Assembly (NCBI GenBank): GCA_020053735.1
Contig: JAGVMP010000015.1
Coordinates: forward strand, 12,708 to 76,707
Length of the DNA stretch: 64,000 bases
From: Pseudomonadota bacterium
GTDB lineage: Bacteria > Pseudomonadota > Gammaproteobacteria > Burkholderiales > Methylophilaceae
Reading direction: 5' to 3'
This document shows, piece after piece, positions 5,091 through 54,577 of this stretch; position 1 is the first letter of the stretch, and every line of letters starts with the position of its first letter. The position numbers were made by a program, and so were the translations under genes. The notes beneath the pieces are model-generated. The model had not been told where the DNA came from. It saw only the letters and a list, made by a program, of their open reading frames with translations, and did no database searches.

Positions 5091-5912
5091 TTACATTATG
5101 GCAGAAACGACTTTGAGTGCTTCTACTGTTGCCTTTACATCATGCACCCGCAGTATTTTAGCACCCTTCATTGCGGCTATCACGCTTGCCGCGATGCTAG
5201 CGTAAAGCCGCGCGTCAACATCATTGCCCGTCATTTGTCCCAATACAGATTTGCGCGACAGCCCCACCAGCAACGGCTGGCCTAAATCTGCGAAACTTTC
5301 CAGATTTTGCAGTAGCGTAATGTTATGTTCGCGTGTTTTGCCAAAGCCAAAACCTGGATCAAGTAAAATAGTATATTCCCCGCAACCCGCATGTATGCTT
5401 GCTTGCAGGCGTGTCTTTAAAAAGGCTTTTATATCATTTATTACATCATTATATTGCGGATTTTGCTGCATGGTCTGCGGTGTGCCCTGCATGTGCATCA
5501 GGCATACGCCTACGTTCGAACTTGCAATAATTTCAACAGCGCCTACTTCTTGCAGCGCACGCACGTCATTTACCATGCTAGCACCAGCTTTAATCGCGGC
5601 TTGCATCACGGCGGGCTTGTAAGTGTCGATAGAAATAGGAATGCTCACCTGCTTTACTAGGGCCTCAATCACTGGAATGACGCGATCCAGCTCTTCTTGC
5701 AGGCTGACAGGCGTAGCGTTGGGGCGGGTGGATTCGCCACCAATATCCAAAATGCTAGCGCCCTCATCAGCTAATTTAAGTGCGTGCGCAACAGCTAAAT
5801 TGGTTTGCGAGAATTTGCCGCCATCAGAGAATGAATCAGGCGTGACATTGACAATACCCATGACTTTGGGGCTTGCTAAATCAAGCTGGAAATTACCGCA
5901 GTTGAAAATCAT
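5091..5912 (-). CDS. folP: Dihydropteroate synthase
   Basis: 'MGIVNVTPDSFSDGG', 'DIGGESTRP', 'DPGFGFGK', 'GLSRKS', 'LRVHDV'. Confidence 0.97.
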   Translation of the reverse strand: MIFNCGNFQLDLASPKVMGIVNVTPDSFSDGGKFSQTNLAVAHALKLADEGASILDIGGESTRPNATPVSLQEELDRVIPVIEALVKQVSIPISIDTYKPAVMQAAIKAGASMVNDVRALQEVGAVEIIASSNVGVCLMHMQGTPQTMQQNPQYNDVINDIKAFLKTRLQASIHAGCGEYTILLDPGFGFGKTREHNITLLQNLESFADLGQPLLVGLSRKSVLGQMTGNDVDARLYASIAASVIAAMKGAKILRVHDVKATVEALKVVSAIM

Positions 5913-5930
5913 AGCTGATTATACTATAGC

Positions 5931-6026
5931 CGTCATTGCGAGGAGTGAAGCGACAAAGCAATCCATATTGAAGGTATAAAAACACTGGATTGCCACGCCC
6001 AAGTTGAAACTTAGTCTCGCAATGAC
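5931..6026. repeat. Family C (CGTC-tagged REP-like) inverted doublet
   Basis: cgtcattgcgag..gcaatcc ... ggattgcc..ctcgcaatgac. Confidence 0.85.
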
Positions 6027-6030
6027 CAAT

Positions 6031-6060
6031 AAATAAGGGCTAATAAATTAGCCCTTATTT
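6031..6060. terminator. Intrinsic terminator after ftsH
   Basis: Perfect IR aaataagggctaat/attagcccttattt. Confidence 0.8.
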
Positions 6061-6076
6061 TAACACCTTTTTAATG

Positions 6077-7966: not shown

Positions 7967-8106
7967 AGCCTGTTCCTTATAAAACGCACGTTGTTTTACT
8001 ACTTAATCTGTTACTTAAATTCTAAACCTATTCAGACTGAATATGACAGGTTTATTTTTTTACCATCTCTTAAACTATTTTTTACCTAGGTTATTTTTTA
8101 CCTGGG

Positions 8107-8724: not shown

Positions 8725-8758
8725 ATTAAAAATTGGCCTTCATGGTAAAATATGGGTT

Positions 8759-9067: not shown

Positions 9068-9071
9068 AAAA

Positions 9072-9229
9072 CATGCCCTGCAAACCAATATCCATGCGGC
9101 CTATCAGGCATGAATAACCAGCTTTGACGTGTAAATAACCAACTTTTAGTTGGTATATTTCACGGGCAAGCCAAATACTGGCTTAGCTGGTATATTCTGC
9201 GGGGACAACCCTTGCGGTTGCAGAGCATG
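9072..9229. repeat. Family A long form with nested hairpin modules
   Basis: catgccctgca..gcagagcatg termini; internal duplicated hairpin. Confidence 0.85.
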
Positions 9230-9258
9230 CCTTTTGATGTTGATTTAAAAAGTGCTTT

Positions 9259-9696: not shown

Positions 9697-9714
9697 GATT
9701 TAAAATAGTACGGT

Positions 9715-10197: not shown

Positions 10198-10221
10198 ACT
10201 TTATTGCCAATCTTTAATAGT

Positions 10222-10259
10222 AAAAAAATAAACCACACTCAGTGCGAGCGTGGTTTTTT
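10222..10259 (-). terminator. Intrinsic terminator between carB and greA
   Basis: aaaccac..gtggttt hairpin with T-run on the minus strand. Confidence 0.65.
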
Positions 10260-10281
10260 GTAAGTTAATAATGAGTGTATT

Positions 10282-17519: not shown

Positions 17520-18602
17520 TTAAAAACCAATCTTCTCTAACATGCGCTCAAAGTAGCCTGGCGCCTCTTCTGGCGGTAATGGTGCTTCTATTTTTTTTGG
17601 TTTAGCCACCGTTTTATTACTAGTAGCATCGCTTTTAATTTCGGCTTCTGGCGCCGCTTCAATTGGTGCTTGTAGGTTATTCAAATCTAGATTTCGATCC
17701 ATTCTGAAAATCAATGGCTCGCCTGCTTTGGCTGCCGGCATAGGCACAGGTGCTTTTGGCTCGTCAGCCTGCGGCGCTTCCACCTGCGGGGCCTCTATGA
17801 GTTGAGGCGTTTCTACAGGCTTTACTTTTTCCGCAGGCGCCGCTTCTGTCACGGGAGCTTCAATTACTGGTGCTGTAATGACAGGCGCTTCTACAGCTGG
17901 TGCGCTAGTCGCAGGCGCATCTAACTTTGGCGCTTCAACTACTGGAACATCAGTTGCTGGCACATCAACTGCAGGTGCATCAGGCGCCAGCACACCACCA
18001 ATTGGCACCGCTAATACAGATGGTACCTCTGTCGTTGGCGCTTCGCCAGCGGGTGCATCTGCACTGCTTGCTGGTGCATCGCCAGCAGGCGCTTGGATAT
18101 TGGCTTCTGGGGCATCAGTTTTTTCTCGCGCGGCGGGCAGCTTCTCATTTTCTTTTGCAGGCTCATCACTTTTCCAGAACTTCAGCTTCTCTGACCAGCT
18201 TTTTTCTTGTTTAGGTTTTGGTTCTACCGTAATGGTTTTCGCAACGCTCGACTCATTGCCAGTAGCCGCCCCAGCTGTGCCCTGTGGCACGACATCACCA
18301 CGTACCTTGGTCAGTAAATCTTTATCAAAATCCAAAATCACACGTCGCTGCTCGACAATTTTGCCTGCTTGACGCAATTGATAAAAATAATCCCAACGGT
18401 CTTTATGAAAGCTATCCACAATGAGTGGCGAGCCCATAATAAATTTGACCTGCGATTTAGTCATGCCAGGCCGCAATTGCAGTAGCATCTTAGAGGTGAC
18501 TACATTACCTTGCTGGATATCCATTTTAAATGGTTTTATGGTAGGAATAGTCGAACCGCAACCAGCCAACAAGAGGGAAAGAACGATTAAAAAATAGCGC
18601 AT
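17520..18602 (-). CDS. bamE: Outer membrane assembly lipoprotein BamE with long Pro/Ala/Glu-rich C-terminal extension
   Basis: Lipobox LLAGC, 'DIQQGN', 'PGMTKSQVKFIMGSP', 'RWDY'; dapB-bamE/fur synteny. Confidence 0.92.
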   Translation of the reverse strand: MRYFLIVLSLLLAGCGSTIPTIKPFKMDIQQGNVVTSKMLLQLRPGMTKSQVKFIMGSPLIVDSFHKDRWDYFYQLRQAGKIVEQRRVILDFDKDLLTKVRGDVVPQGTAGAATGNESSVAKTITVEPKPKQEKSWSEKLKFWKSDEPAKENEKLPAAREKTDAPEANIQAPAGDAPASSADAPAGEAPTTEVPSVLAVPIGGVLAPDAPAVDVPATDVPVVEAPKLDAPATSAPAVEAPVITAPVIEAPVTEAAPAEKVKPVETPQLIEAPQVEAPQADEPKAPVPMPAAKAGEPLIFRMDRNLDLNNLQAPIEAAPEAEIKSDATSNKTVAKPKKIEAPLPPEEAPGYFERMLEKIGF

Positions 18603-21979: not shown

Positions 21980-22405
21980 ATGAAAGTTGATATGAAATAT
22001 CTCACCATATTAATTGCAGCAGCCACATTATTGACGGGTTGCGAGTACACCATTAGTGATGCTGCCACGCGCGTGCGTTATGCTTTTCAAAAAGCAGAAA
22101 TTACCAGCTTTTTTCTATCTGAAAATGACACCACCACCATCACCGTAGCGCCAGACCATTGGCCAGAAGGCTGTAAAAAAGGGGAAGGTTATCAGTTGAT
22201 ATTAATGCCTTACAAAGGCAATAAGCAAGTAGCCAGTGGCGACATTGTGGTTGATTGCTTTGGAGAAAATGGCTACCACACAGGCTTTGGCTCTAAGGAT
22301 ATTGTTATTGCGCAAGAAATGACTATAAAAAAGAAATCGGGCGAAAAAGTACAGATTACCTTGCGCAAATCACATTCTGCCCTAGAAATTATTGAATTGA
22401 AGTAA
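21980..22405 (+). CDS. Hypothetical lipoprotein (paralog 2)
   Basis: Lipobox LLTGC; 'DAATRVRY'; 3 bp after the previous gene. Confidence 0.7.
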   Translation: MKVDMKYLTILIAAATLLTGCEYTISDAATRVRYAFQKAEITSFFLSENDTTTITVAPDHWPEGCKKGEGYQLILMPYKGNKQVASGDIVVDCFGENGYHTGFGSKDIVIAQEMTIKKKSGEKVQITLRKSHSALEIIELK

Positions 22406-22423: not shown

Positions 22424-22462
22424 ATGCCCTGCGAGGCAATATCCATGAGCCTTACAGGGCAC
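22424..22462. repeat. Family A palindrome (short form)
   Basis: atgccctgcgaggcaatatccatgagccttacagggca. Confidence 0.85.
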
Positions 22463-22715: not shown

Positions 22716-22778
22716 AGATTGCTTTGCTTCACTCGCAATGACAAATCAAAATGGATTCCCGCTTTCGCGGGAATGACG
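22716..22778 (-). repeat. Family C tandem units
   Basis: gattgctttgcttcactcgcaatgac plus ggattcccgctttcgcgggaatgacg. Confidence 0.85.
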
Positions 22779-22788
22779 GTGCGGAAGT

Positions 22789-24477
22789 TTAAACCCCCAA
22801 CATCTCTTTGGCATGTTCACGCGTAGTGTCAGTAATTTGAATACCTCCCAACATGCGGGCAATTTCTTCCACCCGTTCGGTTTGGCTTAAGGGTTGAATA
22901 TGACTTAACGTTGCGCCATTGACTTGTGTTTTGCTGACTTGTAAATGCTGTGCAGCTTGCGCGGCGACTTGCGGTAAATGGGTAATCACTAACACTTGGC
23001 GTTCTGCACCGAGTTGTTTCAGCAGTTGCCCTACTACCTCGGCCACACCACCGCCTATGCCCACATCCACCTCATCAAAAATCATACAATCCACATTTTT
23101 ACGATTCGCGCTGCCTTGAGATGCCCCCTGGCCATCGCCAAGTGAATTCAAAGCTAAGGTAACGTGTAGCGCCAAACTGATTCTTGAGAGTTCGCCTCCA
23201 GAAGCCACTTTATTCAATGGGCGCGGCTCCACACCCGCATGCCCTGCCACTAAAAATTCTACGGTTTCTAAACCATTACTTGTCGCCTCACAAGCATTTA
23301 AGGCGACATCAAATCGTCCACCGCTTAATGAAAGGCGCTGCATTTCTGCACTGATTCTTTGGCTTAATGTTTTTGCCGCTTGCTGGCGGTTGCTGCTTAA
23401 TTGTTTAGCTGAAGCTTGATAAGTCGCATAGGCTTCTGCCTCTAGTTTAGCCAGCGCACCATCGTTTGCGAATGTTTCCAGCTGCGCCATCCGCGTTAAA
23501 TCTGCGCTTAGTAAATCAGGCAACTCTTCTGGCTTACTACGGTATTTTCGTGCTGTGTTGTGCACTGCTTGAATGCGATTCTCAACCTCGTTCAGTCGCG
23601 CTGGATCTAACTCTGCACGTTGTAAATAACGGTTTAAACTACGTGAGGCTTCTTCTAACTGGATGATGGCAGAATCCACCTCCTCTGCCGCTTCTTTCAA
23701 TTGCGCATCAAATTCTACTAAGCCAACAAGCTTAGCTTGCACTTGCGCCAACATACTAATGACTGCAGGTTCATTCTCGTCTAAAGCTGCAATACAAGCC
23801 TCTAAACCGCTTAGCAAGCTGGCGCCGTTGGCTAGTTTATGATGCTCGGCCTGCAAATCTTCCCATTCGCTAACCTCAAAATTGAGTTGTTTTAGCTCGC
23901 GCGTTTTATCGCGCAATTCTGCCAGTTCATCCGCATAAGCCGCTGCATTTTTTTCAACCTCTATGCGCTGACGATGTAAATCTACCCAAGTTTTATATTG
24001 CTTGGTGACTTGGCTTGCCAAATCAAGATGTTGTGCAAATTCATCTAAAATTTGGCGCTGTGTATTGATTTTAAGCAGCGAGTGATGCGCGTTTTGGCTA
24101 TAAATATCCACCAATAATTCGCCCAACGCGTTTAGCTGACCAATGGTGACTGCGACGCCGTTAATAAAACCGCGACTGCGGCCATCCGCATAAATAACAC
24201 GCCTGAGAACCAATATTGGTGCGGCCTCCAGGGCAGCTCCTTCAAGCCAAATAGAAGCACTTTCGTTATTTGAAAATGTAGCACTGATATCTGCGCGTTC
24301 CGCACCTGCGCGAATCACGGCACCATCGTTGCGCTCACCCAAGGCCAATGAAAGCGCATCAATCAAGATAGACTTGCCCGCGCCCGTTTCGCCAGTGAGC
24401 GTGGTAAAGCCGCCCGAAAATTCTAGGTCAAGCGTTTCGACAATAATAAAATCACGGATGGATAATGTTTGTAACAT
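22789..24477 (-). CDS. recN: DNA repair protein RecN
   Basis: Walker A 'TGETGAGKS', signature 'ASGGELSR', Walker B 'FDEVD', 'ITHLPQVAA'. Confidence 0.97.
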   Translation of the reverse strand: MLQTLSIRDFIIVETLDLEFSGGFTTLTGETGAGKSILIDALSLALGERNDGAVIRAGAERADISATFSNNESASIWLEGAALEAAPILVLRRVIYADGRSRGFINGVAVTIGQLNALGELLVDIYSQNAHHSLLKINTQRQILDEFAQHLDLASQVTKQYKTWVDLHRQRIEVEKNAAAYADELAELRDKTRELKQLNFEVSEWEDLQAEHHKLANGASLLSGLEACIAALDENEPAVISMLAQVQAKLVGLVEFDAQLKEAAEEVDSAIIQLEEASRSLNRYLQRAELDPARLNEVENRIQAVHNTARKYRSKPEELPDLLSADLTRMAQLETFANDGALAKLEAEAYATYQASAKQLSSNRQQAAKTLSQRISAEMQRLSLSGGRFDVALNACEATSNGLETVEFLVAGHAGVEPRPLNKVASGGELSRISLALHVTLALNSLGDGQGASQGSANRKNVDCMIFDEVDVGIGGGVAEVVGQLLKQLGAERQVLVITHLPQVAAQAAQHLQVSKTQVNGATLSHIQPLSQTERVEEIARMLGGIQITDTTREHAKEMLGV

Positions 24478-24501: not shown

Positions 24502-24599
24502 CCGTCATTCCCGCGCAGGCGGGAATCCATTGTAAATGGTAACTTTTTCTGGATTCCGTGGTTCGCCATTAAAACCAATGGCTCCCGTCGGAATGACGG
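24502..24599. repeat. Family C inverted doublet
   Basis: ccgtcattcccgcgcaggcgggaatcc ... ggattccg..cggaatgacgg. Confidence 0.85.
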
Positions 24600-25786: not shown

Positions 25787-26800
25787 ATGGATAAACGCGC
25801 GCAAATCTTACTTAAAACCTTGGTAGAACATTACATTAGTGATGGTCAGCCCATTGGCTCGCGCACCCTCTTGCAGCACAGTGGCTTGGATGTAAGCCCT
25901 GCAACGATTCGGAATGTGATGAGCGATTTGGAGCACTTGGGCTTTATCGCCAGCCCGCACACATCAGCCGGACGCATCCCCACACAAAAAGGTTACCGCC
26001 TGTTTGTGGATACCTTGCTGACCGTGCAACCGCTAGAAACCAAAGCGGTAAACCAGTTAAGAAGCGGCTTAAGCTCACCCAACCAAAACGAGCTGATTAA
26101 CAGTGCAGCCGATATGCTGTCACAACTCACCCAGTTTGCTGGTTTGGTAATGATACCCAAGCGTAAAGCTTTAAGTTTCAAGCATTTAGAGTTTCTACCG
26201 CTGACCGAAAAAAGGATATTAGTCATCATCGTCACCAGTGACGGCAACGTGCAAAACCGCATCATTTTGAGTGAAAAGCCATACTCAGCCAGTGAACTCA
26301 CTCAGGCTAGCAACTATTTTAATGCCAATTTTTCTGGCCAAACCTTTGATGAGGTGCAGCAAAAACTGCATACCGAACTCAAACAAATGCAAACAGATAT
26401 GAACGTGTTGATGAACGCCGCCCTGCAGGCCAATATCCATGCGGGTGATGGCAATGGTGTTGTGATAGCGGGTGAACGTAACTTACTGAATATTGACGAA
26501 CTTTCTACCAATGTGAATAGCCTACGCAAATTGTTCGAGATTTTTGAGCGCAGAACCTCGTTGATGCAACTTTTGGACAACAGCCAGCACGCAGAAGGTA
26601 TCCAAATTTTTATCGGTGGCGAAAGTGGTTATCTTCCGTTAGATGAATGCAGCATGGTGACCGCGCCGTATGAGGCCGATGGTCAAGTCGTCGGCACACT
26701 AGGTGTAATAGGTCCGACTAGAATGGCCTATGAACGGGTGATACCGATTGTAGATGTCACAGCAAAATTACTATCAAACGCTCTGAGTTCAGGTGCTTAA
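25787..26800 (+). CDS. hrcA: Heat-inducible transcription repressor HrcA
   Basis: 'PIGSRTL', 'SPATIRNVMSDLE', 'PHTSAGRIPT', 'GVIGPTRMAY'. Confidence 0.97.
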   Translation: MDKRAQILLKTLVEHYISDGQPIGSRTLLQHSGLDVSPATIRNVMSDLEHLGFIASPHTSAGRIPTQKGYRLFVDTLLTVQPLETKAVNQLRSGLSSPNQNELINSAADMLSQLTQFAGLVMIPKRKALSFKHLEFLPLTEKRILVIIVTSDGNVQNRIILSEKPYSASELTQASNYFNANFSGQTFDEVQQKLHTELKQMQTDMNVLMNAALQANIHAGDGNGVVIAGERNLLNIDELSTNVNSLRKLFEIFERRTSLMQLLDNSQHAEGIQIFIGGESGYLPLDECSMVTAPYEADGQVVGTLGVIGPTRMAYERVIPIVDVTAKLLSNALSSGA

Positions 26801-26806: not shown

Positions 26807-26892
26807 ACGCCTTCACATCACGTCGTTACGCGGTACTCGTCCCCTCGACGTACTAGGTGTACAGTCTCGGGTTCTACGTTCCGTGCGCCTTG
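26807..26892 (-). repeat. Family B repeat
   Basis: Reverse complement aaggcgcacggaacg..gtac..gtac..gagg..gagtaccgcgtaacg. Confidence 0.8.
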
Positions 26893-26975
26893 TGCTGTTT
26901 TGCCTCAGCTGCTTAATCATACTGAATCAATATTTTCAAATGCATATTTTTAAAATTCATATTGCTAAGAAAGAC

Positions 26976-28206: not shown

Positions 28207-28277
28207 GCGTTATAATGCATGGCAATATTGCTTTATTCATGAGGGCTTTTATCAATGCATTATTTGGGTTGCAGTAT

Positions 28278-28358
28278 AAGGCGCACGGAACGCAGAAGCC
28301 GAGATGTACGCAGTTGTACATCGAGGCTACGAGTACCGCGTAACGCAGTAATGCGCCC
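28278..28358 (+). repeat. Family B repeat
   Basis: aaggcgcacggaacgcagaagccgagatgtacgcagttgtacatcgaggctacgagtaccgcgtaacgcag. Confidence 0.85.
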
Positions 28359-29430: not shown

Positions 29431-29523
29431 AAGGCGTACAGCTTTTAAATTGAAGGTCTGCAGAAGCCGAAACAGTATGTTTTATACGGTGAGGTTGCGA
29501 GCACCGCGCAACGCTGTAATGCG
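29431..29523 (+). repeat. Family B repeat
   Basis: aaggcg..gcagaagccga..gtat gtttt atac..gaggttgcgagcaccgcgcaacgctg. Confidence 0.75.
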
Positions 29524-30136: not shown

Positions 30137-30216
30137 CATCTGCATCGTTACGCGGTGCTCGCAAGCTCCCTGTACAACCCCGTACTATCTCGCTTTCTGT
30201 GCTCCGTGCGCCTTGC
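30137..30216 (-). repeat. Family B repeat
   Basis: Reverse complement aaggcgcacggagcacag..gtac..gtac..gcgagcaccgcgtaacg. Confidence 0.8.
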
Positions 30217-30255
30217 ATATAGGCCGCTCGCAACGGTTTTATAAAGTATTCATTT

Positions 30256-31725
30256 ATGCCACAAACGCTAATTAATACCGTCAAACAATTTGGTAGCAAA
30301 ACTTTAGGCTCTGCCAAACAACACGCACTCGTCATTGGCGATGTGATGTTAGACCGCTATTTAATGGGTGAAGTTGGTCGCATTTCGCCTGAAGCACCGG
30401 TGCCTGTGGTGCTGATTAAAAGTGAAGAGGTACGCGCTGGTGGTGCATCCAATGTGGCTGCCAACTTGGCACTTTTAGGGATTAGTACACGCTTGGTGGG
30501 CTGTGTTGGGGTAGATGCCGAAGCAAATACTTTAAGCAATCTCATCAAGGCCAGCGGTGTTAAGGCCAATTTAATTGCCAGCAAAGTACGCCCCACCATC
30601 GCTAAAACGCGTATTTTAGGCGGCCATCAACAAATGTTGCGGCTAGATCAAGAAGACAGTGCAAGTTTTTCTGAGTTAGAAACCATCAGCTTATTACAAG
30701 TGCTTAAAGTAGAGCTGGCTGAAAAGCCGAGTGTGGTGGTCTTGTCCGATTACGCCAAAGGCTTGCTCAACGAAACGATTTGTCAGCAAATAATCAGCCA
30801 ATGCCAATCACACAAAATTCCTGTTTTAGTGGATCCAAAAGGTACAGACTACAGTAAATATAAAGGGGCAACCGCACTTACCCCCAATAAGAAAGAAGCT
30901 GCAGAGGCCTGCCATACCAACAGCCAAGACACGGACTTAATCAGCAAAGTCACAGCACTAAAAACCAAACTAGATTTGAGCTTTATGGCGGTCACCCGTG
31001 GTGAAGAAGGCATTAGCCTCATTGAAAAAGCTGCACACCACATACCTGCCACTGCACAAAAAGTGTTTGATGTTTCTGGTGCGGGCGACACGGTGATTGC
31101 AACGCTAGCTGCTGGGTTAATGCATGATTTAACACCAATACAAAGCTTGGAGTTGGCCAATATTGCCGCTGGCGTGGTGGTAGGCAAAGTAGGCACTGTG
31201 CCGATTACGCGCGCTGACTTACTAGAAGCGCTCACCGCCAAACAAGGGAATGAGCAAGCACATAAAATTTGCGATTTAGCTGAATTAAATTCAAAAGTGA
31301 ACGCTTGGAAGCAAGCCAAGCAAAAAATCGTGTTTACCAATGGCTGCTTTGATTTGCTGCATGCTGGCCATGTGACATATCTTGAAGCTGCAAAAAAACG
31401 CGGTGATAAATTGATACTTGGCTTAAATACTGATCGATCAGTCAGCGCGATAAAAGGCCCTAGCAGACCAGTGGTACATGAGAATGACCGCGCGCGCGTG
31501 CTGGCCGCGCTTGAAAGTGTGGATGCCGTGATTTTGTTTGACGAAGATACGCCGCTCAAATTGATTAAAGCACTCAAGCCAGACATCATCGCCAAAGGTA
31601 GCGATTACACTGCAAGCCAAGTGGTTGGTGGCAAAGAGGTGCAAAGCTGGGGTGGCGAAATTGCGCTAATTGAATTGGTAGAAGGCCGAAGCACCAGCAA
31701 TATTATTCGTAAACTGAATACGTAA
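30256..31725 (+). CDS. hldE: Bifunctional heptose-7-P kinase / heptose-1-P adenylyltransferase
   Basis: 'GRISPEAPVPV', 'DVSGAGDTV', 'NGCFDLLHAGH', 'STSNII'. Confidence 0.96.
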   Translation: MPQTLINTVKQFGSKTLGSAKQHALVIGDVMLDRYLMGEVGRISPEAPVPVVLIKSEEVRAGGASNVAANLALLGISTRLVGCVGVDAEANTLSNLIKASGVKANLIASKVRPTIAKTRILGGHQQMLRLDQEDSASFSELETISLLQVLKVELAEKPSVVVLSDYAKGLLNETICQQIISQCQSHKIPVLVDPKGTDYSKYKGATALTPNKKEAAEACHTNSQDTDLISKVTALKTKLDLSFMAVTRGEEGISLIEKAAHHIPATAQKVFDVSGAGDTVIATLAAGLMHDLTPIQSLELANIAAGVVVGKVGTVPITRADLLEALTAKQGNEQAHKICDLAELNSKVNAWKQAKQKIVFTNGCFDLLHAGHVTYLEAAKKRGDKLILGLNTDRSVSAIKGPSRPVVHENDRARVLAALESVDAVILFDEDTPLKLIKALKPDIIAKGSDYTASQVVGGKEVQSWGGEIALIELVEGRSTSNIIRKLNT

Positions 31726-32750
31726 TGGCTGACAAAATTCTAGTCCTTGGTCCAGCGTGGGTAGGCGATATGGTACTGGCACAAAGCCTATTTAAAACGC
31801 TCAAACTCAACCGACCTGATTGCATTATTGACGTTGCTGCTCCCGCGTGGACATTGCCTTTACTAGAGCGTATGCCAGAAGTTTCTGGCAAGATTGCTCT
31901 GCCATTTAAACATGGCGAACTGGCTTTTTGGCAGCGCATTCAATTTGGCAAAAGCTTAAAAAATGCAGGTTACAGTCAAGCAATCATTCTCACCAACTCG
32001 TTTAAATCAGCTTTGCTGCCTTGGGCGGCCAGCATAGCAAAACGCACCAGCTTTTTAGGTGAAATGCGCTACGGTTTAATTAACGATATCCGCCCACTTG
32101 ATAAAACCAAGCTCAAAAAAACGGTAGAACGGTTTGTGACACTAGGTTTAGATAAAGATGTATCTTTGCCAAAAACCATTCCAAACCCATACTTAAACAG
32201 TGCCCCAGAAGCCGCATGGATATTGGCTTACAGGCTAGGTGTTTTGGATAATAAGAGTAAAGTGCTGGGCATTTGCCCAGGTGCAGAGTACGGTGAGGCC
32301 AAACGCTGGCCAGCCGAATACTATGCCGAAGTAGCCAATGATGCACTCAAAAAGGGTTGGCAAGTGTTATTGTTTGGGTCAGATAAAGACATGCCAGTAA
32401 CCACTCAAATCAACCAGCTTACGCAAAATAAATGTGTTGATTTAGGTGGCAAAACTAAACTGGGCGAAGCGATAGATTTGATGTCGATTTGCGATACCGT
32501 GATTAGCAACGACTCTGGTTTGATGCATGTGGCCGCCGCGCTAAGTAATGAAACTAGCGCAAAAAAACTCATCGCCATATTTGGCAGCAGCGACCCTTAC
32601 CACACGCCACCTATGCAGCCAGATGCAGTGATAGAATATTTAGGCTTAAGTTGCAGCCCTTGCTTTAAGCGTGAGTGCCCGCTTAAAGATGAGGCGCATT
32701 TAGCTTGCTTAAAAAATATCACGCCGCAGTTGATTGCCACTAAAATTTAG
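31725..32750 (+). CDS. waaF: LPS heptosyltransferase II
   Basis: 'PAWVGDMV', 'PGAEYGEAKRWP', 'NDSGLMHVAAA'. Confidence 0.94.
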   Translation: MADKILVLGPAWVGDMVLAQSLFKTLKLNRPDCIIDVAAPAWTLPLLERMPEVSGKIALPFKHGELAFWQRIQFGKSLKNAGYSQAIILTNSFKSALLPWAASIAKRTSFLGEMRYGLINDIRPLDKTKLKKTVERFVTLGLDKDVSLPKTIPNPYLNSAPEAAWILAYRLGVLDNKSKVLGICPGAEYGEAKRWPAEYYAEVANDALKKGWQVLLFGSDKDMPVTTQINQLTQNKCVDLGGKTKLGEAIDLMSICDTVISNDSGLMHVAAALSNETSAKKLIAIFGSSDPYHTPPMQPDAVIEYLGLSCSPCFKRECPLKDEAHLACLKNITPQLIATKI

Positions 32751-37098: not shown

Positions 37099-38112
37099 TT
37101 ATAGCTTATAGTATTTTTTATACCAAATCGAAAATTTTTCTATCCCAGTTTTCAAGTCTGTGTTTGGTTTAAACCCTACCCACGCCTCTAGTGCGCTAGT
37201 GTCGGCATAAGTCGCTTTTACATCCCCTGCTTGTATGGGTAAAAATTCTTTTTGCGCTTTTCTGTCCAACGCATCCTCTAAAAAACCGATAAAATCGAGT
37301 AGTTTTTCAGGATGATTATTCCCAATATTGAACAGTCTGTAAGGCGCATGGATATTGCCTCCCAGAGCATCGATTTGAGGCATTATAAGTTTGGCTGGTG
37401 GTTTATGTAGCACACGAATGACAGCTTCGACAATGTCGTCGATATAAGTAAAATCGCGCATCATATCGCCATAATTAAACACTTTAATTGGCTTATTGTT
37501 GAGAATAGCATCTGCAAATAAAAATGGCGCCATATCTGGCCTGCCCCATGGCCCATACACAGTAAAGAAGCGTAATCCAGTCGTTGGGATACCATACAGA
37601 TGGCTGTAGGTATGTGCCATCAATTCATTGGCTTTTTTCGTTGCTGCATACAAACTCACGGGGTGATCGACATTATCTGTCTCAGAAAATGGCAATTTAG
37701 TATTGCCGCCGTATACGCTAGATGAGCTTGCATACACCAAATGTTGCGGTTTAATCGCGCGGCACGCCTCTAGCACATTGGTAAACGCAACGATGTTGCT
37801 GCTGATATATGCATGTGGATTTTCGAGCGAGTAACGCACCCCCGCTTGCGCCGCGAGATGAATGACGCTATCTGGATTTTCACCTACAAATAATCGAGCT
37901 GTTGCAAGCTGCTCAGCTAAATCAAGCTTAACAAATTTAAAGTTTTTGGCATTTGGGTGCGCTTGAATGGTTTCAAGTCGCGCTTCTTTTAAACTTAGGT
38001 CGTAATAATCATTCATATTATCGACTCCAACCACGACGTCACCACGTGTCAACAACTGAAGCGCTGTATGAAACCCAATAAATCCTGCTACCCCTGTTAA
38101 TAATACTTTCAT
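37099..38112 (-). CDS. UDP-glucuronate 4-epimerase
   Basis: 'TGVAGFIG', '[11 protein letters not shown]', 'YAATKKANE', '[10 protein letters not shown]'; follows ugd. Confidence 0.88.
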
Positions 38113-42709: not shown

Positions 42710-42746
42710 TGCTCTGCAAGCCAATATCCATGAGGCTTGCAGAGCA
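42710..42746. repeat. Family A palindrome (short form)
   Basis: Perfect 13-bp arms tgctctgcaagcc/ggcttgcagagca around aatatccatga. Confidence 0.9.
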
Positions 42747-42787
42747 TCAAAATGATGTTATATAAAAATCACGTTGCGTAAACAAAA

Positions 42788-43457: not shown

Positions 43458-43514
43458 GTTTAAGTTTTTACCTAAATTAAATAGTTGGAATAATAATGAT
43501 ATTTAAATTTAAAT

Positions 43515-43542
43515 TGGATTCCCGCCTGCGCGGGAATGACGG
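43515..43542 (-). repeat. Family C single unit
   Basis: tggattcccgcctgcgcgggaatgacgg. Confidence 0.85.
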
Positions 43543-43559
43543 AATGAGAAATACTTGAA

Positions 43560-45593: not shown

Positions 45594-45632
45594 CATGCCT
45601 GCAAACCGCATGGATATTGGCTTGCAGGCATG
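45594..45632. repeat. Family A palindrome (short form)
   Basis: catgcctgcaaacc-gcatggatatt-ggcttgcaggcatg. Confidence 0.9.
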
Positions 45633-47394: not shown

Positions 47395-48927
47395 TCATTC
47401 ACTCATCTCTTTATTAGCATAGATCCCCGCTTTAATTAAAATTGCGGGGTCGGGATAAATCACTTTAAATGTTTTCACGAACGCATTATACAGGGCTGGC
47501 TCATTCTGCCAATTTTGCATAAAACGATGCAAATCTTTTAAATGCGCAACACTGCTGGTGAAATGAGTGCGGTGTTGGCGCATGCTATCTAAATCTATCA
47601 GCAATGGCTGCGCACCTTGCATTTTGATGTTGGTGGCTTTCATATCGCCATGCGAAATATGCAGCAGATAAAGTTTGTAAAAAAGCGTTGCAATATTTTT
47701 TACTGCCTCAGCGCGCTGGGATTTATTTTGTGTTTGAGCAAAATATTGGGCAACATCGGGTGCATCAGTATATTCTGCTAAAAAATAAGCTTTGCCTCTA
47801 AACACTCCCAAACTACGATGCTCGATGAGCGCAATTGGCTTTGCTGTTGCAATCTTCAATATTTTAAGCCGATGTGCATTCGCCCATGACGCCGCAGCAC
47901 GGCTTTGACGAAAGGCGCGACTGATGCCATGCCAAAAGTTTTTGATGTTATAGCGCTTAATGACTATCTTTTTATCATCCATTTCTACAAGCGCGACTGT
48001 GCAAGTGTTGCTATTTTTAAGTAGATTCTGAGTACCAATTAACGCATCTAAATCCTCAGTAAAGTCGGTATTTTCCGCATCGCTGGAAGCCAATATCCAT
48101 GCGCCTTTCATGCATGAATAACCAGCTTTAGCTGGTATATTCTGCGGGGACGACCCCTGCGGTTGCAGAGCATACTTTTTCACATCTGTGCACTGCCGAA
48201 AAACTTTTTTATCTGCATAGGCAGATGCTGCCTTGATACGATGTCGCTCAGATAAACGGCTGATATCTGAAGCTACAAGCTCAACACTAGGGTTCGCCAT
48301 GTGATATTGCATTAAAAGTTTAGGCATCCATGCTAAAACCTCGAGCACATCAAATTTGGACAAAAGAACGGCAAAATTTGATGAAGCTTGTTGGTAAGAA
48401 ATAACATCGTATTGGCGAATACCATCGCCATCAATGCTATAAAGTTGCTGACCATCAAACAAAAAGTTTTTAAGATATAAATCTGTTTGCATTAAACGCG
48501 CATGGTGATGCTGACCAAGCGTCTGAGCAAGCATAGAGGCCAACTCTAATCGTTGTGACGCATTACGCTGCACCCATACTGATTCGACATTCTGACTATG
48601 AGGGATAGCTTCAAATATCAATATTTCTGTATCATCAAGCGTGTCAATAAGCAATAATTTTGAAGTGGCGATACTTGCGGCAATGAGTGCGTCCACACCT
48701 TGTTTATCTCTTTGTGCATAGCGCTTAGCGCCATTGCCAATAAACAACTTAGCATACACCGCCTGCCCTTTCCAAACACCTCGGCACACCAAACGCTTAT
48801 TGGCTACTCGACGTACCACTTGCTCCACTATAAGCGCGTCACCATTACTTAGCCAAAGCGAAAATGTTTGATTCTCATCATTTGATAACGCAGACAAATT
48901 GTTTAGCAAAGCGAATTGATCTGCCAT
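47395..48927 (-). CDS. Two-domain LPS kinase (Kdo/WaaP family)
   Basis: Two kinase-like halves ('QTDLYLKNFL..IDGD' and 'HGDMKATNI..IDLD'); start MADQ overlaps upstream stop (TAATG). Confidence 0.8.
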   Translation of the reverse strand: MADQFALLNNLSALSNDENQTFSLWLSNGDALIVEQVVRRVANKRLVCRGVWKGQAVYAKLFIGNGAKRYAQRDKQGVDALIAASIATSKLLLIDTLDDTEILIFEAIPHSQNVESVWVQRNASQRLELASMLAQTLGQHHHARLMQTDLYLKNFLFDGQQLYSIDGDGIRQYDVISYQQASSNFAVLLSKFDVLEVLAWMPKLLMQYHMANPSVELVASDISRLSERHRIKAASAYADKKVFRQCTDVKKYALQPQGSSPQNIPAKAGYSCMKGAWILASSDAENTDFTEDLDALIGTQNLLKNSNTCTVALVEMDDKKIVIKRYNIKNFWHGISRAFRQSRAAASWANAHRLKILKIATAKPIALIEHRSLGVFRGKAYFLAEYTDAPDVAQYFAQTQNKSQRAEAVKNIATLFYKLYLLHISHGDMKATNIKMQGAQPLLIDLDSMRQHRTHFTSSVAHLKDLHRFMQNWQNEPALYNAFVKTFKVIYPDPAILIKAGIYANKEMSE

Positions 48928-50471
48928 TACTTGGATACTATCTTCCATAATGCCCAGCGGCCAATTTGCTTTTCCTGCATCACAACTCCATTTTCTAGTA
49001 CGGGCTTATCTTTGCTCAATAGCCATAATGTTTTATTTACCACCAATAACTGTTCTAGCTGCTTCCCACCCAAAGGCTGGATGGGGCGATTAGCATAAAA
49101 TGACACTGCCCCATCTCCAGGCTTGGCTTGATATAAAGGCTTAGCTTGATAGAGCGCTTGAGACGAAGTTGAATCAATAGCAACTGATTGCACTAGCTGC
49201 TTAATGTCGTCTTTTTCTGTGTCTTTAGTGATGTACTGCTCCGCAAATAAATAAATAAACGTTGCAAATACTGCCGCTAATAAAACAGGTGTCTGAGGAG
49301 CGGGAATATTCAACTCACGTTTTAACAACCAAGGACCAAGCAATAATAAGGGCCAAATCAGAACGGTTGGCAAGCTCAACACATGCGTCAAGCCTTGCTT
49401 ACGTATTCCGACCACAAACAACGCAATCACAGCAATCGCTAATAAGCAAAAAATGACGCGGTTAAATTGATAAAACCTGCCTTGCGCCACTTGTAAATAA
49501 TAGCCGATAAGAATCGCAATCGATGGTAAAAAAAGTAAGGCATATTGCGTTTGTTTGTTAACAGTAAACGTGAGCAACACGAATACGACTAGCAACCAAA
49601 TAATAGAGAAATGCACAACCTTAGGTAACGGTCGATGTTGATACAACCATATACCCGCAGGGACCAACAGCAAACTCCATGGTGCAAAAAACTCTACAGC
49701 ATGCGCTAAATACCAGTAAATCGGCTGCTGATGTGTGCCAGATACAAACGTTTCATCTACCTGACGCGATACAAATTGTTGCGCCACATCTGGCATACTG
49801 ATTAAAATCCATGCATACCATGCAAATGCGCTGACTAAAAAAATCATTATCCCAGTTGGGTTAATGATTGCTTTAACCGTGTGCAATTGTTTAGTCGCAA
49901 ACGCGTAACCCAACACAGTCATTAATGGAATGGCAATGCCCGCAGGGCCTTTTGTCAAAAAACCAAGCCCTAATGCCAGCATGAACAAATAAACTGTTTT
50001 TTTGTTTGGTGACTCAAAAAGCTTGAACCCAGCAAAGCAAGCTAGAGAGACAAAAAACAATAACGTAGCATCCGCCTCAGCACTTCTAAAATAGCGCATC
50101 CCTAAGAAGCTTGTACACATCACCAACACAGCATTCGCTGCGGCTTGAATATTTAAGGTATCTTTTAACCAAATAAACAACAAGCAAGCTGAAAGTAATG
50201 CAAACAAAAGAGAAGGCACGCGTGCTGCCGCCTCACTCACACCAAATAATTTATAGCTAAGCGCAGTCGTCCAATAGGTCAACGGCGGTTTTTGTAAGCG
50301 TAGCTCGCCATTATAGTGTGGCACCACCCAATCATTACGCACCACCATTTCACGTGCGGTCTCAGCTATTCGAGCCTCTTGTATTTTATCAATAGCGCGA
50401 CCCGCTGAGCCAAACAACAAACCAATCAATATAACACTTAACAATCCGACGCTAATTTTCAGCATATACAC
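48927..50471 (-). CDS. Second ArnT-like GT-C glycosyltransferase
   Basis: 'QEARIAETAREM', 'KPPLTYW', 'ARVPS', 'LTKGP'. Confidence 0.85.
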   Translation of the reverse strand: MYMLKISVGLLSVILIGLLFGSAGRAIDKIQEARIAETAREMVVRNDWVVPHYNGELRLQKPPLTYWTTALSYKLFGVSEAAARVPSLLFALLSACLLFIWLKDTLNIQAAANAVLVMCTSFLGMRYFRSAEADATLLFFVSLACFAGFKLFESPNKKTVYLFMLALGLGFLTKGPAGIAIPLMTVLGYAFATKQLHTVKAIINPTGIMIFLVSAFAWYAWILISMPDVAQQFVSRQVDETFVSGTHQQPIYWYLAHAVEFFAPWSLLLVPAGIWLYQHRPLPKVVHFSIIWLLVVFVLLTFTVNKQTQYALLFLPSIAILIGYYLQVAQGRFYQFNRVIFCLLAIAVIALFVVGIRKQGLTHVLSLPTVLIWPLLLLGPWLLKRELNIPAPQTPVLLAAVFATFIYLFAEQYITKDTEKDDIKQLVQSVAIDSTSSQALYQAKPLYQAKPGDGAVSFYANRPIQPLGGKQLEQLLVVNKTLWLLSKDKPVLENGVVMQEKQIGRWALWKIVSK

Positions 50472-50560
50472 TCACTTATTTTCAACCTCACATCACAGAT
50501 TATATCAGCCCAGCCGAGGCTAGTCGCTAAGTATGGATGCGCTATGTTATGATTTTATAT

Positions 50561-51430: not shown

Positions 51431-51448
51431 CTGGCTGTAGTAATAAGT

Positions 51449-52279
51449 CTAGTTAATTGCAGATTTTTCTTTGGCTAAACGCTGTTGAAATTTTGTGCTG
51501 TTAAACTTGGCAAATAACTTGTTCGCACGCGCCTCCACTTTTGCCCAAAAAGCAGCTGTTTGTGGTAAATAATGTTGCTTGAATATGCCTAAATCTTGGG
51601 CACCTAGATCTTGCGCACATAGGCCATTTTGCAACATCGAGAAATATAAACCGGCAATGTCTTTCATCACGGCATCACCATTCGGTGACTGATTTTGCAG
51701 CATGCGATGCAAATCGATTAAGTGCAAATCGTAATGATTGGCTGCAGCGTTTTGACGGCTTAGCACAAAATGGCATAGATAAAAATCGCGGTGACACAAA
51801 CCAGCACTGTGTAGTTTGCTGGCAATGTCAGCCACAGCCGTCTGCATTAAGCGTTTAGAATCTTCAAGCATAGGGTAAGACTGGCTATCCATCAGCATTT
51901 CTTCTAACGAGACAATGTCGCCCAAATCTTCCGTTAACACAAAAGATTGCATAGTTGCAGGGTTGCAACCGCGTTGGCCATAAGCCACCAATGGCGTGCT
52001 AGCAATACCTATCTCACTTAACTTTTGTAATGCGCGTACTTCAGTCATGGCGCCTAAAATCGGCAGTTTTAAGCTCAGCAGATTTTTAAAAACCTCACCC
52101 CAACCCACGCCAAAATGCTGTTTGATGAAGTAATATTTTCCGCCAAGCTCGGTACGCATGGTCTTGCGACCAGGTACATCGCGAAATGCCTTGCCTTGCA
52201 ACTGCATGCAAGCTTCAAACACATCGCCTTTTAGATGCGCTGAAATAGCTTCTGGCACATAAAGCACTTGCTTAACCAT
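51449..52279 (-). CDS. waaP: LPS core heptose kinase
   Basis: 'YFIKQH', 'CHRDFYLCHF', 'LIDLHR', 'KDIAGLYFS'; directly after waaG. Confidence 0.85.
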   Translation of the reverse strand: MVKQVLYVPEAISAHLKGDVFEACMQLQGKAFRDVPGRKTMRTELGGKYYFIKQHFGVGWGEVFKNLLSLKLPILGAMTEVRALQKLSEIGIASTPLVAYGQRGCNPATMQSFVLTEDLGDIVSLEEMLMDSQSYPMLEDSKRLMQTAVADIASKLHSAGLCHRDFYLCHFVLSRQNAAANHYDLHLIDLHRMLQNQSPNGDAVMKDIAGLYFSMLQNGLCAQDLGAQDLGIFKQHYLPQTAAFWAKVEARANKLFAKFNSTKFQQRLAKEKSAIN

Positions 52280-53435
52280 GTTGCCCTTTCTTGGATTGTG
52301 CTTTCTTAGCTTCTGGCCGCTTTTCACCAGCAAGCCGAATCAAAATTTCCGCTTCTGCACTGCCATCATTTTCTTGCATGATTTTTTGCGCTTGTTTTAA
52401 GCCGTTATCTGCCCACATTTGTTTGTGCTCGCTTGTGCGCATTTGCGCAAATAGCGCATTAAAATTGGCTTGCTCAAACGGCATTTCGCATACCAAGCCT
52501 GCATTAGCCTCACGCACATAATGTGCATAGCCGCAACTTGCAGTCACTAGCATTGGCGTGGCGCTGGCCATGCCTTCCAAAATCACTAGCCCGGTATTCT
52601 CACGGTAAGCTGGGTGAATACACACATCGGCGCCTTGCATCAGTTGCGGAATATCTGGCCGGCCTTTTGAAATCACGACGTTCTCAGCAACTCCCAAATT
52701 TTGCGCCAGCTTGGTAAATTGCCTAGGGTTGTCTTGGCCTACAGCGATCAAGCGGGTATTGGCGCGCAACGCATCGGGCAAAGCCTTTAACGCTAAAATT
52801 GCGCGATCCAAACCTTTCATGGCAAAGCCAGAGCCTGTCAGTAAATAGACGAAATCATTCGCAGCAAAATTAAATTGTTGCCGCAAATAAGCGCGTGCTT
52901 CTGCTTTGGGTTTTAATACAAAACGCTCGGGCAACAAACACGGTGGAATATAATGAAAGCGTCTGTCTTGCGTGCCATACCAGTGCTGGAAATGCGGTTT
53001 CTCAGCCAACGAAACGGCTAAAATCTCCGTAGCAGATTCGCCAGAAAACACCGCTTTTTCACAAGTAGCAAACCACTTAAAACGCGGCAAAAGCCGATAC
53101 AAAAAACTTCGCTGCTGGTGTGCGCGCTCAATAAAACAAGGGTCGGCGGCAAAGTGTGCATCCAAGCCTGCCATACGGTTATAGCCAAAAATATAATCGA
53201 AACTCTCTGTTTTTAAAAAAGTTGCCTCAATAAATTTTTGATAGCGCTGGTAATTGAATAGTCCTGTTTGCGGTAGCACATGCACTTCAATGCCAACTGG
53301 TGCTTCGCCCTGCCAGCTCATGGTAAACACTTCCACCGTGTGTCCACGTTTCAGCAGCTCATTCGCGGTGCGCAACATATCGCGCTGCATGCCACCGAAG
53401 GGAAAGTATTTAAATATAATAAAAGCAAATTTCAT
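52272..53435 (-). CDS. waaG: LPS core GT4 hexosyltransferase (WaaG/WapG-like)
   Basis: 'KYFPFGGMQRD', 'GSGFAMKGLDR', 'HPAYRENTG'; start MKFAF (53435). Confidence 0.85.
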   Translation of the reverse strand: MKFAFIIFKYFPFGGMQRDMLRTANELLKRGHTVEVFTMSWQGEAPVGIEVHVLPQTGLFNYQRYQKFIEATFLKTESFDYIFGYNRMAGLDAHFAADPCFIERAHQQRSFLYRLLPRFKWFATCEKAVFSGESATEILAVSLAEKPHFQHWYGTQDRRFHYIPPCLLPERFVLKPKAEARAYLRQQFNFAANDFVYLLTGSGFAMKGLDRAILALKALPDALRANTRLIAVGQDNPRQFTKLAQNLGVAENVVISKGRPDIPQLMQGADVCIHPAYRENTGLVILEGMASATPMLVTASCGYAHYVREANAGLVCEMPFEQANFNALFAQMRTSEHKQMWADNGLKQAQKIMQENDGSAEAEILIRLAGEKRPEAKKAQSKKGQHG

Positions 53436-53454
53436 AAAGCCCTCAGCACAGCGA

Positions 53455-53550
53455 CTGCGCTTGTGCATACTTTGTTAAAAATTGGCTCAAAATCCTCATG
53501 TATGGGCATATACATTCCAGTTTTTCGCCAATTTTTGCCTCGTCAGCACT
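53455..53550 (-). repeat. Family B repeat (hybrid subtype)
   Basis: Reverse complement gacgaggc..ggaatgtat..atacatgaggatt..aacaaagtat. Confidence 0.75.
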
Positions 53551-53599
53551 GCGCTCGTAACACTGTGCCAAGGCCTTTAATCGCATTTTATGCGAAAAT

Positions 53600-54577
53600 A
53601 TGACAATGAAACGAATTCTTCTTGTAAAAACCTCATCTTTGGGCGATGTCATCCACAATTTGCCGGTGGTAAACGATATTTTGCAGCATGCCCCACAAGC
53701 GCATATCGATTGGCTGGTAGAAGAGTCCTTTGCAGATATTCCACACTTACATACAGGCATAAGCCATGTATTTACGCTGGCTTTTCGGCGTTGGCGCAAG
53801 CAGCTATTCAACAAGAAAACTTGGCAAGAAATTGCTGCGTTTAAGCAATTAATCCAACAGAGTCATTACGATGCCATTATCGATACACAAGGTTTACTTA
53901 AAAGCGCCCTGGCCATGCATTACGCGCACGGCACAAAGCATGGTTACGATAAACAGTCCATCCGTGAGCCACTAGCGAGTTACTTTTACGATAAAACCTA
54001 TGCGATTTCTTATCAGCAGCATGCGGTCATGCGTAACCGTGCGCTGTGTGCGTTAAGTTTAGGCTATGAAACCCCAACCGATGCGCCTGATTACGGCATG
54101 CCCACAAAACGCATGGCTATTCATCCGCATACTAGTGATTTGCAGTCTGATTATATGATTGCCTTGCACGGCACCAGCCGTGATAGCAAGTTGTGGCCAG
54201 TTGAACATTGGGTAGCCTTAGGCAAGCAACTCGCGCTGCAAAACCTGAACATGGTGTTACCTTGGGCAAGCGGCGCTGAACATACACGTGCAAATTTAAT
54301 TTCTACTCAACTATCCAACGCTGTTGTATTGCCCAAGTTGAGCATCAGTGAACTTGCAGGCGTCATTGCCAATGCCAAAGCTGCTATTGGTGTAGATACT
54401 GGTTTATCACACCTTGCCGGCGCGCTCAATATTCCCACCGTCGCCATTTACACTGACACCAACCCTGCACTCACTGGCGTGGTGGCGGGCAAACTCGCAC
54501 CCGCCATCAACTTGGGCGGCATTCACCAAACACCCACTGTAGAGGACGTTTTAGGCGCTTTAAAACCCCATATTTAA
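53600..54577 (+). CDS. waaC: LPS heptosyltransferase I
   Basis: 'VKTSSLGDVIH', 'IDTQGLLKS', 'HAVMRNR', 'GVDTGLSHLA'. Confidence 0.94.
   Translation: MTMKRILLVKTSSLGDVIHNLPVVNDILQHAPQAHIDWLVEESFADIPHLHTGISHVFTLAFRRWRKQLFNKKTWQEIAAFKQLIQQSHYDAIIDTQGLLKSALAMHYAHGTKHGYDKQSIREPLASYFYDKTYAISYQQHAVMRNRALCALSLGYETPTDAPDYGMPTKRMAIHPHTSDLQSDYMIALHGTSRDSKLWPVEHWVALGKQLALQNLNMVLPWASGAEHTRANLISTQLSNAVVLPKLSISELAGVIANAKAAIGVDTGLSHLAGALNIPTVAIYTDTNPALTGVVAGKLAPAINLGGIHQTPTVEDVLGALKPHI

Follow-up and report, generated by a model that had tools for sequence, protein, structure and literature searches.

Known palindromes that occupy both intergenic and coding DNA include the Rickettsia palindromic elements (RPEs) and the intragenic repetitive extragenic palindromic (REP) sequences of the GTAG/CGTC type. 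Both are described as insertions that add 20–50 residues to the proteins that host them, and one end of an RPE bears a CGTC tag (Di Nocera et al. 2013, PMC3733652). Here we analyzed one 64-kb window of a host genome from the Methylophilaceae (hereafter the window, meaning the whole stretch of DNA studied) and describe family A, a 39-nt hairpin repeat found there between genes and in frame within them. Family A resembles RPEs and intragenic REPs in being a short palindrome that is intergenic as well as in frame in functional, often housekeeping genes, in its preference for sites downstream of coding regions, and in its restriction to a lineage. It differs in that its genic copies are mostly equal-length replacements. 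A CGTC or GTAG tag was absent from the family A consensus, its flanks, and all aligned copies.

The uptake signal sequences (USS) of Pasteurellaceae and the DNA uptake sequences (DUS) of Neisseriaceae offer a second comparison. Like family A, they occupy coding DNA without changing its length, with a frame bias and in poorly conserved segments, they are conserved across related species, and they form hairpins at gene 3' ends when intergenic (Findlay and Redfield 2009, PMC2817400). However, USS and DUS have cores of 9–12 nt, whereas family A is a 39-nt hairpin with an asymmetric loop, is sparser, and changes in blocks that include a 57-nt module. Family A is likened to these sequences by its occupancy pattern alone and not by uptake.

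REP/REPIN-RAYT systems share with family A an imperfect palindrome of 20–40 nt that is present in many copies at gene 3' ends and probably forms hairpins in single-stranded DNA (ssDNA) or RNA, but family A has neither the GTAG tetranucleotide nor the inverted doublet organization of REPINs. No RAYT or other transposase was found in the 32 distinct open reading frames (ORFs) scanned in the window, and none was recognized between paired copies in seven related loci, where translated ORFs were read with no profile scan. The arms of family A are inverted repeats, which a MITE (a miniature inverted-repeat transposable element) would also have, and no duplication flanks A. HIP1 of cyanobacteria is an over-represented 8-bp perfect palindrome that lies in genes, leaves their length unchanged, and is conserved at orthologous positions; family A differs from it as a 39-nt stem-loop with a conserved loop. 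Taken together, family A resembles a REP in its form and in where it sits between genes, and an uptake sequence in the manner in which it occupies coding DNA.

A hairpin repeat family between and within genes

Family A is a real repeat family, far above chance. The window contained 15 occurrences of its 14-nt core (CCAATATCCATGCG, with up to two mismatches), where 0.59 were expected, and 0 of 100 shuffles reached 15. An nhmmer profile trained on seven intergenic copies recovered 15 copies at the significance cut-off of E < 0.01, nine intergenic and six genic and in frame, on both strands, which corresponds to ~1 copy per 4 kb (15 in 64 kb). A first-pass annotation of the window had proposed a palindromic family that is both intergenic and in frame within conserved genes; the profile search agreed, and all of the peptides quoted in that annotation were present.

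The family A consensus, ATGCCCTGCAAGCC-AATATCCATGC-GGCTTGCAGGGCAT, is 39 nt long and forms a 13-bp stem around a conserved asymmetric loop of 11 nt. Intergenic copies folded as hairpins with stems of 13–14 bp, at dG −10 to −16 kcal/mol and z-scores between −4 and −6. What genic copies retained was just the 5-bp inner stem, and they folded no better than shuffles. The consensus has zero stop codons across its six frames, a property shared by 3% of composition-matched shuffles. All nine intergenic copies sit 3' of at least one flanking ORF:

64–101 (−): short intergenic copy, downstream of ORF 114–371 (−); folds as a hairpin; nhmmer E = 3.8e-13
2559–2595 (+): short intergenic copy between convergent genes; nhmmer E = 4e-11
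9074–9234 (+): long intergenic composite of A left arm plus core, expanded module B, and A right arm
22425–22461 (+): short intergenic copy downstream of recN and ORF 21980–22405; E = 2.4e-11; fold z −3.9
42710–42747 (+): short intergenic copy with a perfect 13-bp stem and 11-nt loop; dG −15.9, z −6.1
45597–45629 (−): short intergenic copy, 37 nt 3' of the carbamoyltransferase gene; E = 1.7e-11
54594–54689 (no strand assigned): long intergenic form that begins 17 nt past the waaC stop; fold z −5.3
60380–60417 (+): short intergenic copy; nhmmer E = 7.9e-13
62576–62691 (+): A plus a diverged module B after it, 3' of the GIY-YIG gene, with 15 nt of the 3' end inside candidate small ORF 62677–62946 (−)

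Intergenic positions 3' of the recN, KDPG aldolase, carbamoyltransferase, and waaC genes were kept in relatives. Copy 22425–22461 was conserved in position in loci L122, L135, and L125, copy 42710–42747 in L122, L202, and L214, copy 45597–45629 in L121, L122, L198, L202, and L212, and copy 54594–54689 in L199 and L205. Protection of mRNA 3' ends and service as a protein-binding site are among the possibilities for the role of the intergenic hairpins, if they have one. An Rfam scan of the window at the gathering threshold matched no RNA family. Among public sequencing runs, none of RNA contained window sequence, and DNA runs shared at most 19% of sampled words.

Two other identities were considered and rejected. 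The copies are not intrinsic terminators, as no A stem-loop was flagged in the 20 kb scanned, where the sole terminator-like site within an element was a minor 6-bp stem at 54671–54686, in module B of the post-waaC copy. A separate canonical terminator (42810–42788) precedes copy 42710–42747, and T runs follow only some family A copies. The arms were also evaluated as independent DUS-like words, and the excess of TGCCCTGCA-like sequences (41 vs 25 expected) was apparently due to the elements, judged by position.

Four long forms (9074–9234, 48083–48179, 54594–54689, and 62576–62691) carry module B, a unit of ~57–60 nt with two small hairpins, between the core and the right arm. Module B was never found away from A, either in the window or in 340 related loci. 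TGCGG brackets module B on both sides and could be a duplication or belong to the element. When the post-waaC copy (54594–54689) was compared with 48083–48179, its A core was inverted relative to B with the outer arms in place. This arrangement suggests either a flipping of the loop between the inverted arms or an independent acquisition of B.

Length, frame, and silent sites of the genic copies

Beyond the six significant genic copies of the window, many others lie in related loci. Host genes of the window copies were identified from NCBIfam and Pfam. They are given here with the copy or candidate copy that each contains (SDR, short-chain dehydrogenase/reductase; LPS, lipopolysaccharide):

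5091–5912 (−): folP; copy at 5375–5409 (−), E = 2.8e-4, encodes RLQASIHAGCGE (C-terminal helix half and turn)
17520–18602 (−): gene for a BamE-domain protein with a long low-complexity tail; copy at 18087–18108 (−), core only, E = 0.007, encodes EANIQAPAGD in the low-complexity tail
22789–24477 (−): recN, weak copy only; borderline decayed copy at 24202–24235 (+), E = 0.043, ALEAAPILVLRR, antisense frame
25787–26800 (+): hrcA; copy at 26420–26446 (+), left arm plus core, E = 6e-8, encodes AALQANIHAG
31725–32750 (+): waaF; copy at 32201–32235 (−), E = 1.3e-8, antisense frame, encodes APEAAWILAYRL
37099–38112 (−): SDR sugar epimerase gene; copy at 37336–37369 (−), E = 3.4e-8, encodes a 12-residue peptide
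47395–48948 (−): gene for a two-domain Kdo/WaaP-type LPS kinase; long form (A plus module B) at 48083–48179 (+), with the gene on the − strand, encodes KKYALQPQGSSPQNIPAKAGYSCMKGAWILAS
53600–54577 (+): waaC, relic only; possible relic (RMAIHPH) at 54103–54121 (−), E = 0.55, non-significant alone

The gene list of the first-pass annotation held for folP, hrcA, waaF, the epimerase gene, and the LPS kinase gene but not for waaC (54103–54121, E = 0.55), and it had missed the copy in the BamE-domain gene. A two-mismatch match at 46123 in the carbamoyltransferase gene was rejected as chance because its peptide motif, AWFQGRMEFGPR, was invariant across all orthologues. RLQASIHAGCRA was widespread among FolP homologues of 81–92% identity, the peptide at the recN copy site had counterparts in clade orthologues only, and the right arm of the epimerase copy overlaps the conserved APYR motif.

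The layout of two host proteins was also noted. The BamE-domain lipoprotein (17520–18602, −) has a ~260-aa C-terminal extension of low complexity, rich in Ala, Pro, Glu, and Val, and the tails of its orthologues vary in length. In the LPS kinase (47395–48948, −), Pfam Kdo/WaaP matched only the C-terminal half, and AlphaFold2 confidently predicted a second kinase-like alpha/beta domain in the N-terminal half (~250 aa). This two-domain architecture was conserved in Methylophilaceae and some Gammaproteobacteria.

Most genic copies did not lengthen their host proteins. Across the window and related genomes, 11 of the 14 genic sites at which length could be judged changed by 0 to ±1 residue relative to orthologues or solved structures (waaF, hrcA, folP, epimerase, kinase short form, hldE, prmC, pth, trhO, fmt, and trpD); a fifteenth site, in the BamE tail, was not alignable and lies outside the 14. 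In WaaF, PEAAWILASRLGI occupies the exact positions of the outgroup NALATLQKLGV, the flanking anchors being 38 residues apart in each case, and there is no insertion relative to E. coli WaaF (1PSW), which if anything is three residues longer at the copy site. HrcA AALQANIHAGDG aligned without gaps to AALEASNKAADN of relatives. For the left part of the window a carB-based contig scan gave distant taxa only, and FolP was compared via protein search; its segment aligned ungapped with solved dihydropteroate synthase structures including 7L6P, and in the AlphaFold2 FolP model the element forms the C-terminal half of helix 157–174 plus a turn. The epimerase segment differed from solved 5U4Q by one residue, with a 1-residue gap upstream. 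Within the clade the epimerase loop was variable in length, and the window version is ~5–10 aa longer than several orthologues. Copies in PrmC, Pth, TrhO, Fmt, and TrpD, all from other genomes, were ungapped against solved structures with a difference of at most one residue, and the short form in the kinase likewise took up as many positions as the ancestral residues.

HldE allowed occupied and empty sites to be compared. The window hldE lacks the element, but five relatives carry a near-complete 39-nt copy that replaces an equal length of ENAQLLSAIQAQLA, with up to 33/39 matches (L130) and 21–33 bits in the other four carriers. No intermediate was found among ~75 other orthologues, in which element-free sites matched at 13–19/39. 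Across these alignments, genic copies in structured parts of proteins overwrite ~13 codons with the same number and mostly add no loop.

Loops and linkers were the only places with a true gain in length. The long form of the kinase has +19 aa from module B relative to short-form orthologues, and module B occurred in kinase homologues sharing 84% and 59% identity but was missing from those at 68%. In the AlphaFold2 kinase model (pLDDT 87), each half of A makes up one strand of a beta-hairpin (256–260 and 283–288), and module B is a disordered loop (264–279) between them. One kinase homologue (P0193) has GQYPCGFQ at the same linker position, which is the element in sense frame 2; this frame points to repeated independent hits at what may be one tolerant site. 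Clear copies in the waaC of relatives L205, L212, L203, and L214 were read in a third frame (..MDIGLQ..) and added +7 to +26 aa, and the RlmD copy lies within a ~34-aa extra segment.

These gains in the kinase, waaC, and RlmD are what an RPE- or MITE-like element would be expected to leave behind if a mobile palindrome added ~13 or more residues by in-frame insertion and persisted where tolerated. The 39-nt unit is divisible by three and has all its frames open, and intragenic REPs and RPEs are already known (PMC3733652). We nevertheless consider insertion a rather improbable account of the family. The 11 of 14 sites without net length change argue against it, as does the lack of a target-site duplication, GTAG/CGTC tag, or transposase in the window and between paired copies in sampled loci, and a decaying insert would not hold silent sites fixed. 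The RPE-like reading in the first-pass annotation was therefore right about an in-frame palindromic family and not about insertions that add a loop peptide.

Use of frame was restricted, mainly to two of the six stop-free frames. Among independent family members, collected by an exact 16-mer of the core, copies in long ORFs were almost always read in the sense as ALQANIHAAC, a few being read in the antisense as ALQAAWILAC; where another frame was used, the ORF was short and probably spurious. In the structural models, the sense frame maps to the C-terminal half of the FolP helix and the antisense frame to a beta-strand of the kinase. The combined A and B unit is open in one frame only, which is the one used in the kinase.

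Silent sites within the element were conserved across species. In the waaF core, the codon of 18 clade orthologues matched that of the window in 97% of same-residue cases vs 52% in the rest of the gene, and the same ATA (Ile) codon was used in 15/15 of the orthologues (among the 18) that keep Ile. Pairwise same-codon fractions in the core were 0.92 for waaF, 0.86 for hldE, 0.80 for hrcA, and 1.00 for the epimerase gene vs 0.52–0.55 elsewhere, values that are somewhat inflated because the sequences were selected as carriers of the element. The conserved unit comprises the 21-nt loop and inner stem, which were maintained at synonymous positions across species where other silent sites had largely diverged; the outer arms drift. 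To our knowledge, silent-site conservation of a core across species has not been reported for RPEs.

Codon-level conservation bears directly on whether the genic copies could reflect chance, or protein-level convergence on common Ala/Leu-rich helices. FolP and the kinase did have similar ancestral peptides, and synonymous-codon shuffles yielded more genic core matches (mean 1.58, max 5 in 200) than whole-codon shuffles (mean 0.72, max 4 in 200), both of which fit convergence. However, the six matches observed exceeded the maximum of either set. Exact 14-nt cores with arm matches occurred in unrelated genes, orthologues outside the clade were without the sequence, and convergence on a peptide does not account for one shared ATA codon. 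We regard this explanation as effectively refuted.

Distribution and possible routes into genes

Family A is confined to one Methylotenera-related clade of Methylophilaceae. The best match to the window WaaF was 89% identical and came from a Methylophilaceae metagenome-assembled genome (MAG), and its neighbors were Methylotenera-like. Matches to the exact core 16-mer were mostly from Methylophilaceae and Methylotenera MAGs. In a sample of 80 waaF-centred loci (1.29 Mb), family A was present only in ~20 genomes with WaaF at least 76% identical and was absent from the loci of Methylotenera mobilis 13, Methylophilus, and Methylobacillus. The literature searched contained nothing on the family and nothing relevant on REP or uptake sequences in Methylophilaceae. 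Within the clade, subsets of genic sites differed between genomes, with copies in hldE, hrcA, and waaC present or absent.

We give even odds to the reading that family A is a set of REP-like hairpins that come to lie in genes through templated, conversion-like overwriting, after which the copies are held uniform as DNA. Such copying and overwriting could proceed by short-patch ectopic gene conversion or by replication template switching, with another genomic copy as the donor. Favored targets would be sites with a prior likeness to an arm or with a comparable amphipathic segment in the encoded protein. Length- or frame-changing events in structured regions would be purged by selection, so that length gains would survive only in loops and linkers. 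Genic copies would remain in concerted evolution with the family, which would lead to silent-site conservation, recurrent gain of module B in the short copy of the kinase, and similar loop variants in folP and hrcA.

Several features of the sites are consistent with such overwriting. Targets showed prior similarity to the element, with AALEA (hrcA) resembling the left arm, APYR (epimerase) the right arm, and RLQASIDAGV (folP) and FIAxAS (kinase) the encoded peptide. Ancestral-type hldE and waaF sites, at 13–19/39 matches, ranked in the top 0.1–9% of positions in their own gene; copies scored 33/39 in hldE (L130) and 27 (L122) and 31 (L119) in waaF. Loop variants five codons longer were alike in folP (TMNGTNGHAG) and hrcA (TISQTNGHAG) of different genomes, with the DNA read for hrcA only. 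The site subsets, the pattern of module B, the loop variants, and the inverted core suggest that blocks may be copied from other family members.

Other points weigh against overwriting by conversion. We infer conversion from end states, no donor-recipient event having been caught between very close strains, and microhomology at the hldE junction was ~4 nt and on one side only. Stepwise point mutation under drive could give equal length if intermediates were unsampled. Purifying selection on a DNA-binding site could explain silent-site conservation instead of homogenization. The four-gene pairwise sequences were picked for carrying the element, which makes their same-codon fraction somewhat inflated, and the 18-orthologue waaF figure is less biased.

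The main rival to conversion-like overwriting is an uptake-sequence-like drive, in which the uptake or recombination machinery of a naturally transformable lineage would favor DNA with the element or with its 21-nt core. Better-matching variants would be fixed more often, and the motif would build up in genes at unchanged length and in tolerated frames. Equal length, restricted frames, and poorly conserved segments are features of USS and DUS in coding DNA (PMC2817400), and all were seen here, along with silent-site conservation of the motif across species and intergenic copies at conserved positions at gene 3' ends. The window also has NTS/SRM-type repeats and a small GIY-YIG gene, a pairing tied to transformation in Neisseria (PMC11893778). 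Yet what is conserved is no 9–12-nt word but a hairpin of 39 nt whose stems are partly compensated, and its arms alone are not over-represented. Its density of ~1 per 4 kb compares with roughly 1 per 1.2 kb for USS/DUS (our calculation from counts in PMC2817400 and genome sizes), which run to hundreds to thousands of copies per genome. The jump at hldE spans ~15–20 substitutions without intermediates, whole blocks move in the case of module B and of the loop variants, and competence in the clade is only hypothetical. On balance we think a drive of this kind unlikely.

Selection on a DNA or RNA site would approach the same data differently. The loop and inner stem would form a putative protein-binding site, for a nucleoid/chromosome or RNA-binding protein, with regular spacing and under purifying selection. 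Nucleotide-level conservation in genic copies agrees with this, as does the conservation of intergenic positions among relatives whose flanking intergenic DNA is unalignable. However, a role in RNA is disfavored by the finding of genic copies in either orientation with respect to the mRNA. The set of occupied sites varies between relatives (hldE, hrcA, waaC), many copies decay (hrcA, epimerase, recN), the family is absent in sister genera with the same genes, and the cognate protein is purely hypothetical. This makes a selected site improbable as the explanation of family A.

More speculatively, and with a probability well short of even, the clade may harbor an undescribed DNA-level drive that writes the 39-nt hairpin into coding DNA at equal length and maintains its uniformity, either as an uptake or recombination signal whose recognition sequence is unusually long and structured or through a homing-like nicking of near-cognate sites and their repair from other copies. 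The selfish or signal sequence would then directly shape helices and strands of MutS, FolP, WaaF, HldE, Pth, and PrmC.

Other repeats in the window and the significance of family A

Family A is not the only repeat in the window. A second family, CGTCATTCCCGCG(N)GCGGGAATCCAT, was present at 22751–22778 (−), 24503–24530 (+), and 43506–43545, with a partial copy at 60277–60313, and is nearly identical to the Neisseria NTS/dRS3 element. The copies at 22751–22778 and 24503–24530 match the published SRM motif and bracket recN in inverted orientation. A GIY-YIG nuclease gene (62918–63169, −) encodes a single domain of 83 aa that is 77–95% conserved across Methylotenera, in a fixed neighborhood of rsmD, coaD, ferredoxin, glyoxalase, the GIY-YIG gene, and an 80-aa ORF. 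The encoded protein is a candidate ssDNA nuclease of the Ssn type, for which the NTS-like repeats could be the partner.

The NTS/SRM repeats of Ssn GIY-YIG ssDNA nucleases share with family A the property of being multi-copy hairpin repeats in a betaproteobacterium (Chenal et al. 2025, PMC11893778). The SRM motif HGTCWY..RNCYNB, which contains CGTC, had 0 matches in the family A consensus. A link between family A and the GIY-YIG gene was unsupported. A family A copy follows the operon closely in the window and in L117, but there is none at this place in L342–L347, with four further look-ups of GIY-YIG orthologues 79–90% identical, in other assemblies, showing no copy.

A third intergenic family of ~45–100 nt, with ..AAGGCGCACGGAACGCAG.. 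and ..GCGAGCACCGCGYAACG.. in both orientations, is unrelated to family A and is clustered around genes at 27–30 kb. Its copies are:

4954–5042: third-family copy
26816–26897: third-family copy
28272–28353: third-family copy
29475–29520: third-family copy
30141–30244: third-family copy
63264–63309: third-family copy

Two direct repeat pairs were also present. A 50-nt pair (43596–43645/55468–55517) was 72% identical, with both members starting CGTAGACAGTAC, and may be a GTAG-tagged REP-like element on the basis of this shared start. A 38-nt pair (21543–21580/59963–60000) was 84% identical, ACATRGGGCRCAATAACTGAAAGRCATTGC, and each member overlaps a gene boundary.

Intragenic short palindromes have hitherto been read as tolerated insertions. 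Here they mostly replace structured segments at equal length in more than 12 housekeeping genes with their silent sites conserved, which is the unusual and testable part of the system. Equal-length replacement together with silent-site conservation implies that repeat families may rewrite coding sequence by a conversion- or drive-like route and not by insertion alone. Family A would then be a source both of concerted, non-adaptive amino acid replacements and of constraint on silent sites. Standard models of protein evolution take no account of either, and inference from dN/dS or from alignments can be misled. Because many orthologues have the element and many do not, nature has in effect run an experiment on how much foreign sequence a helix or a beta-hairpin can take up. 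If the uptake or homing mechanism is true, such systems extend beyond Neisseriaceae and Pasteurellaceae.

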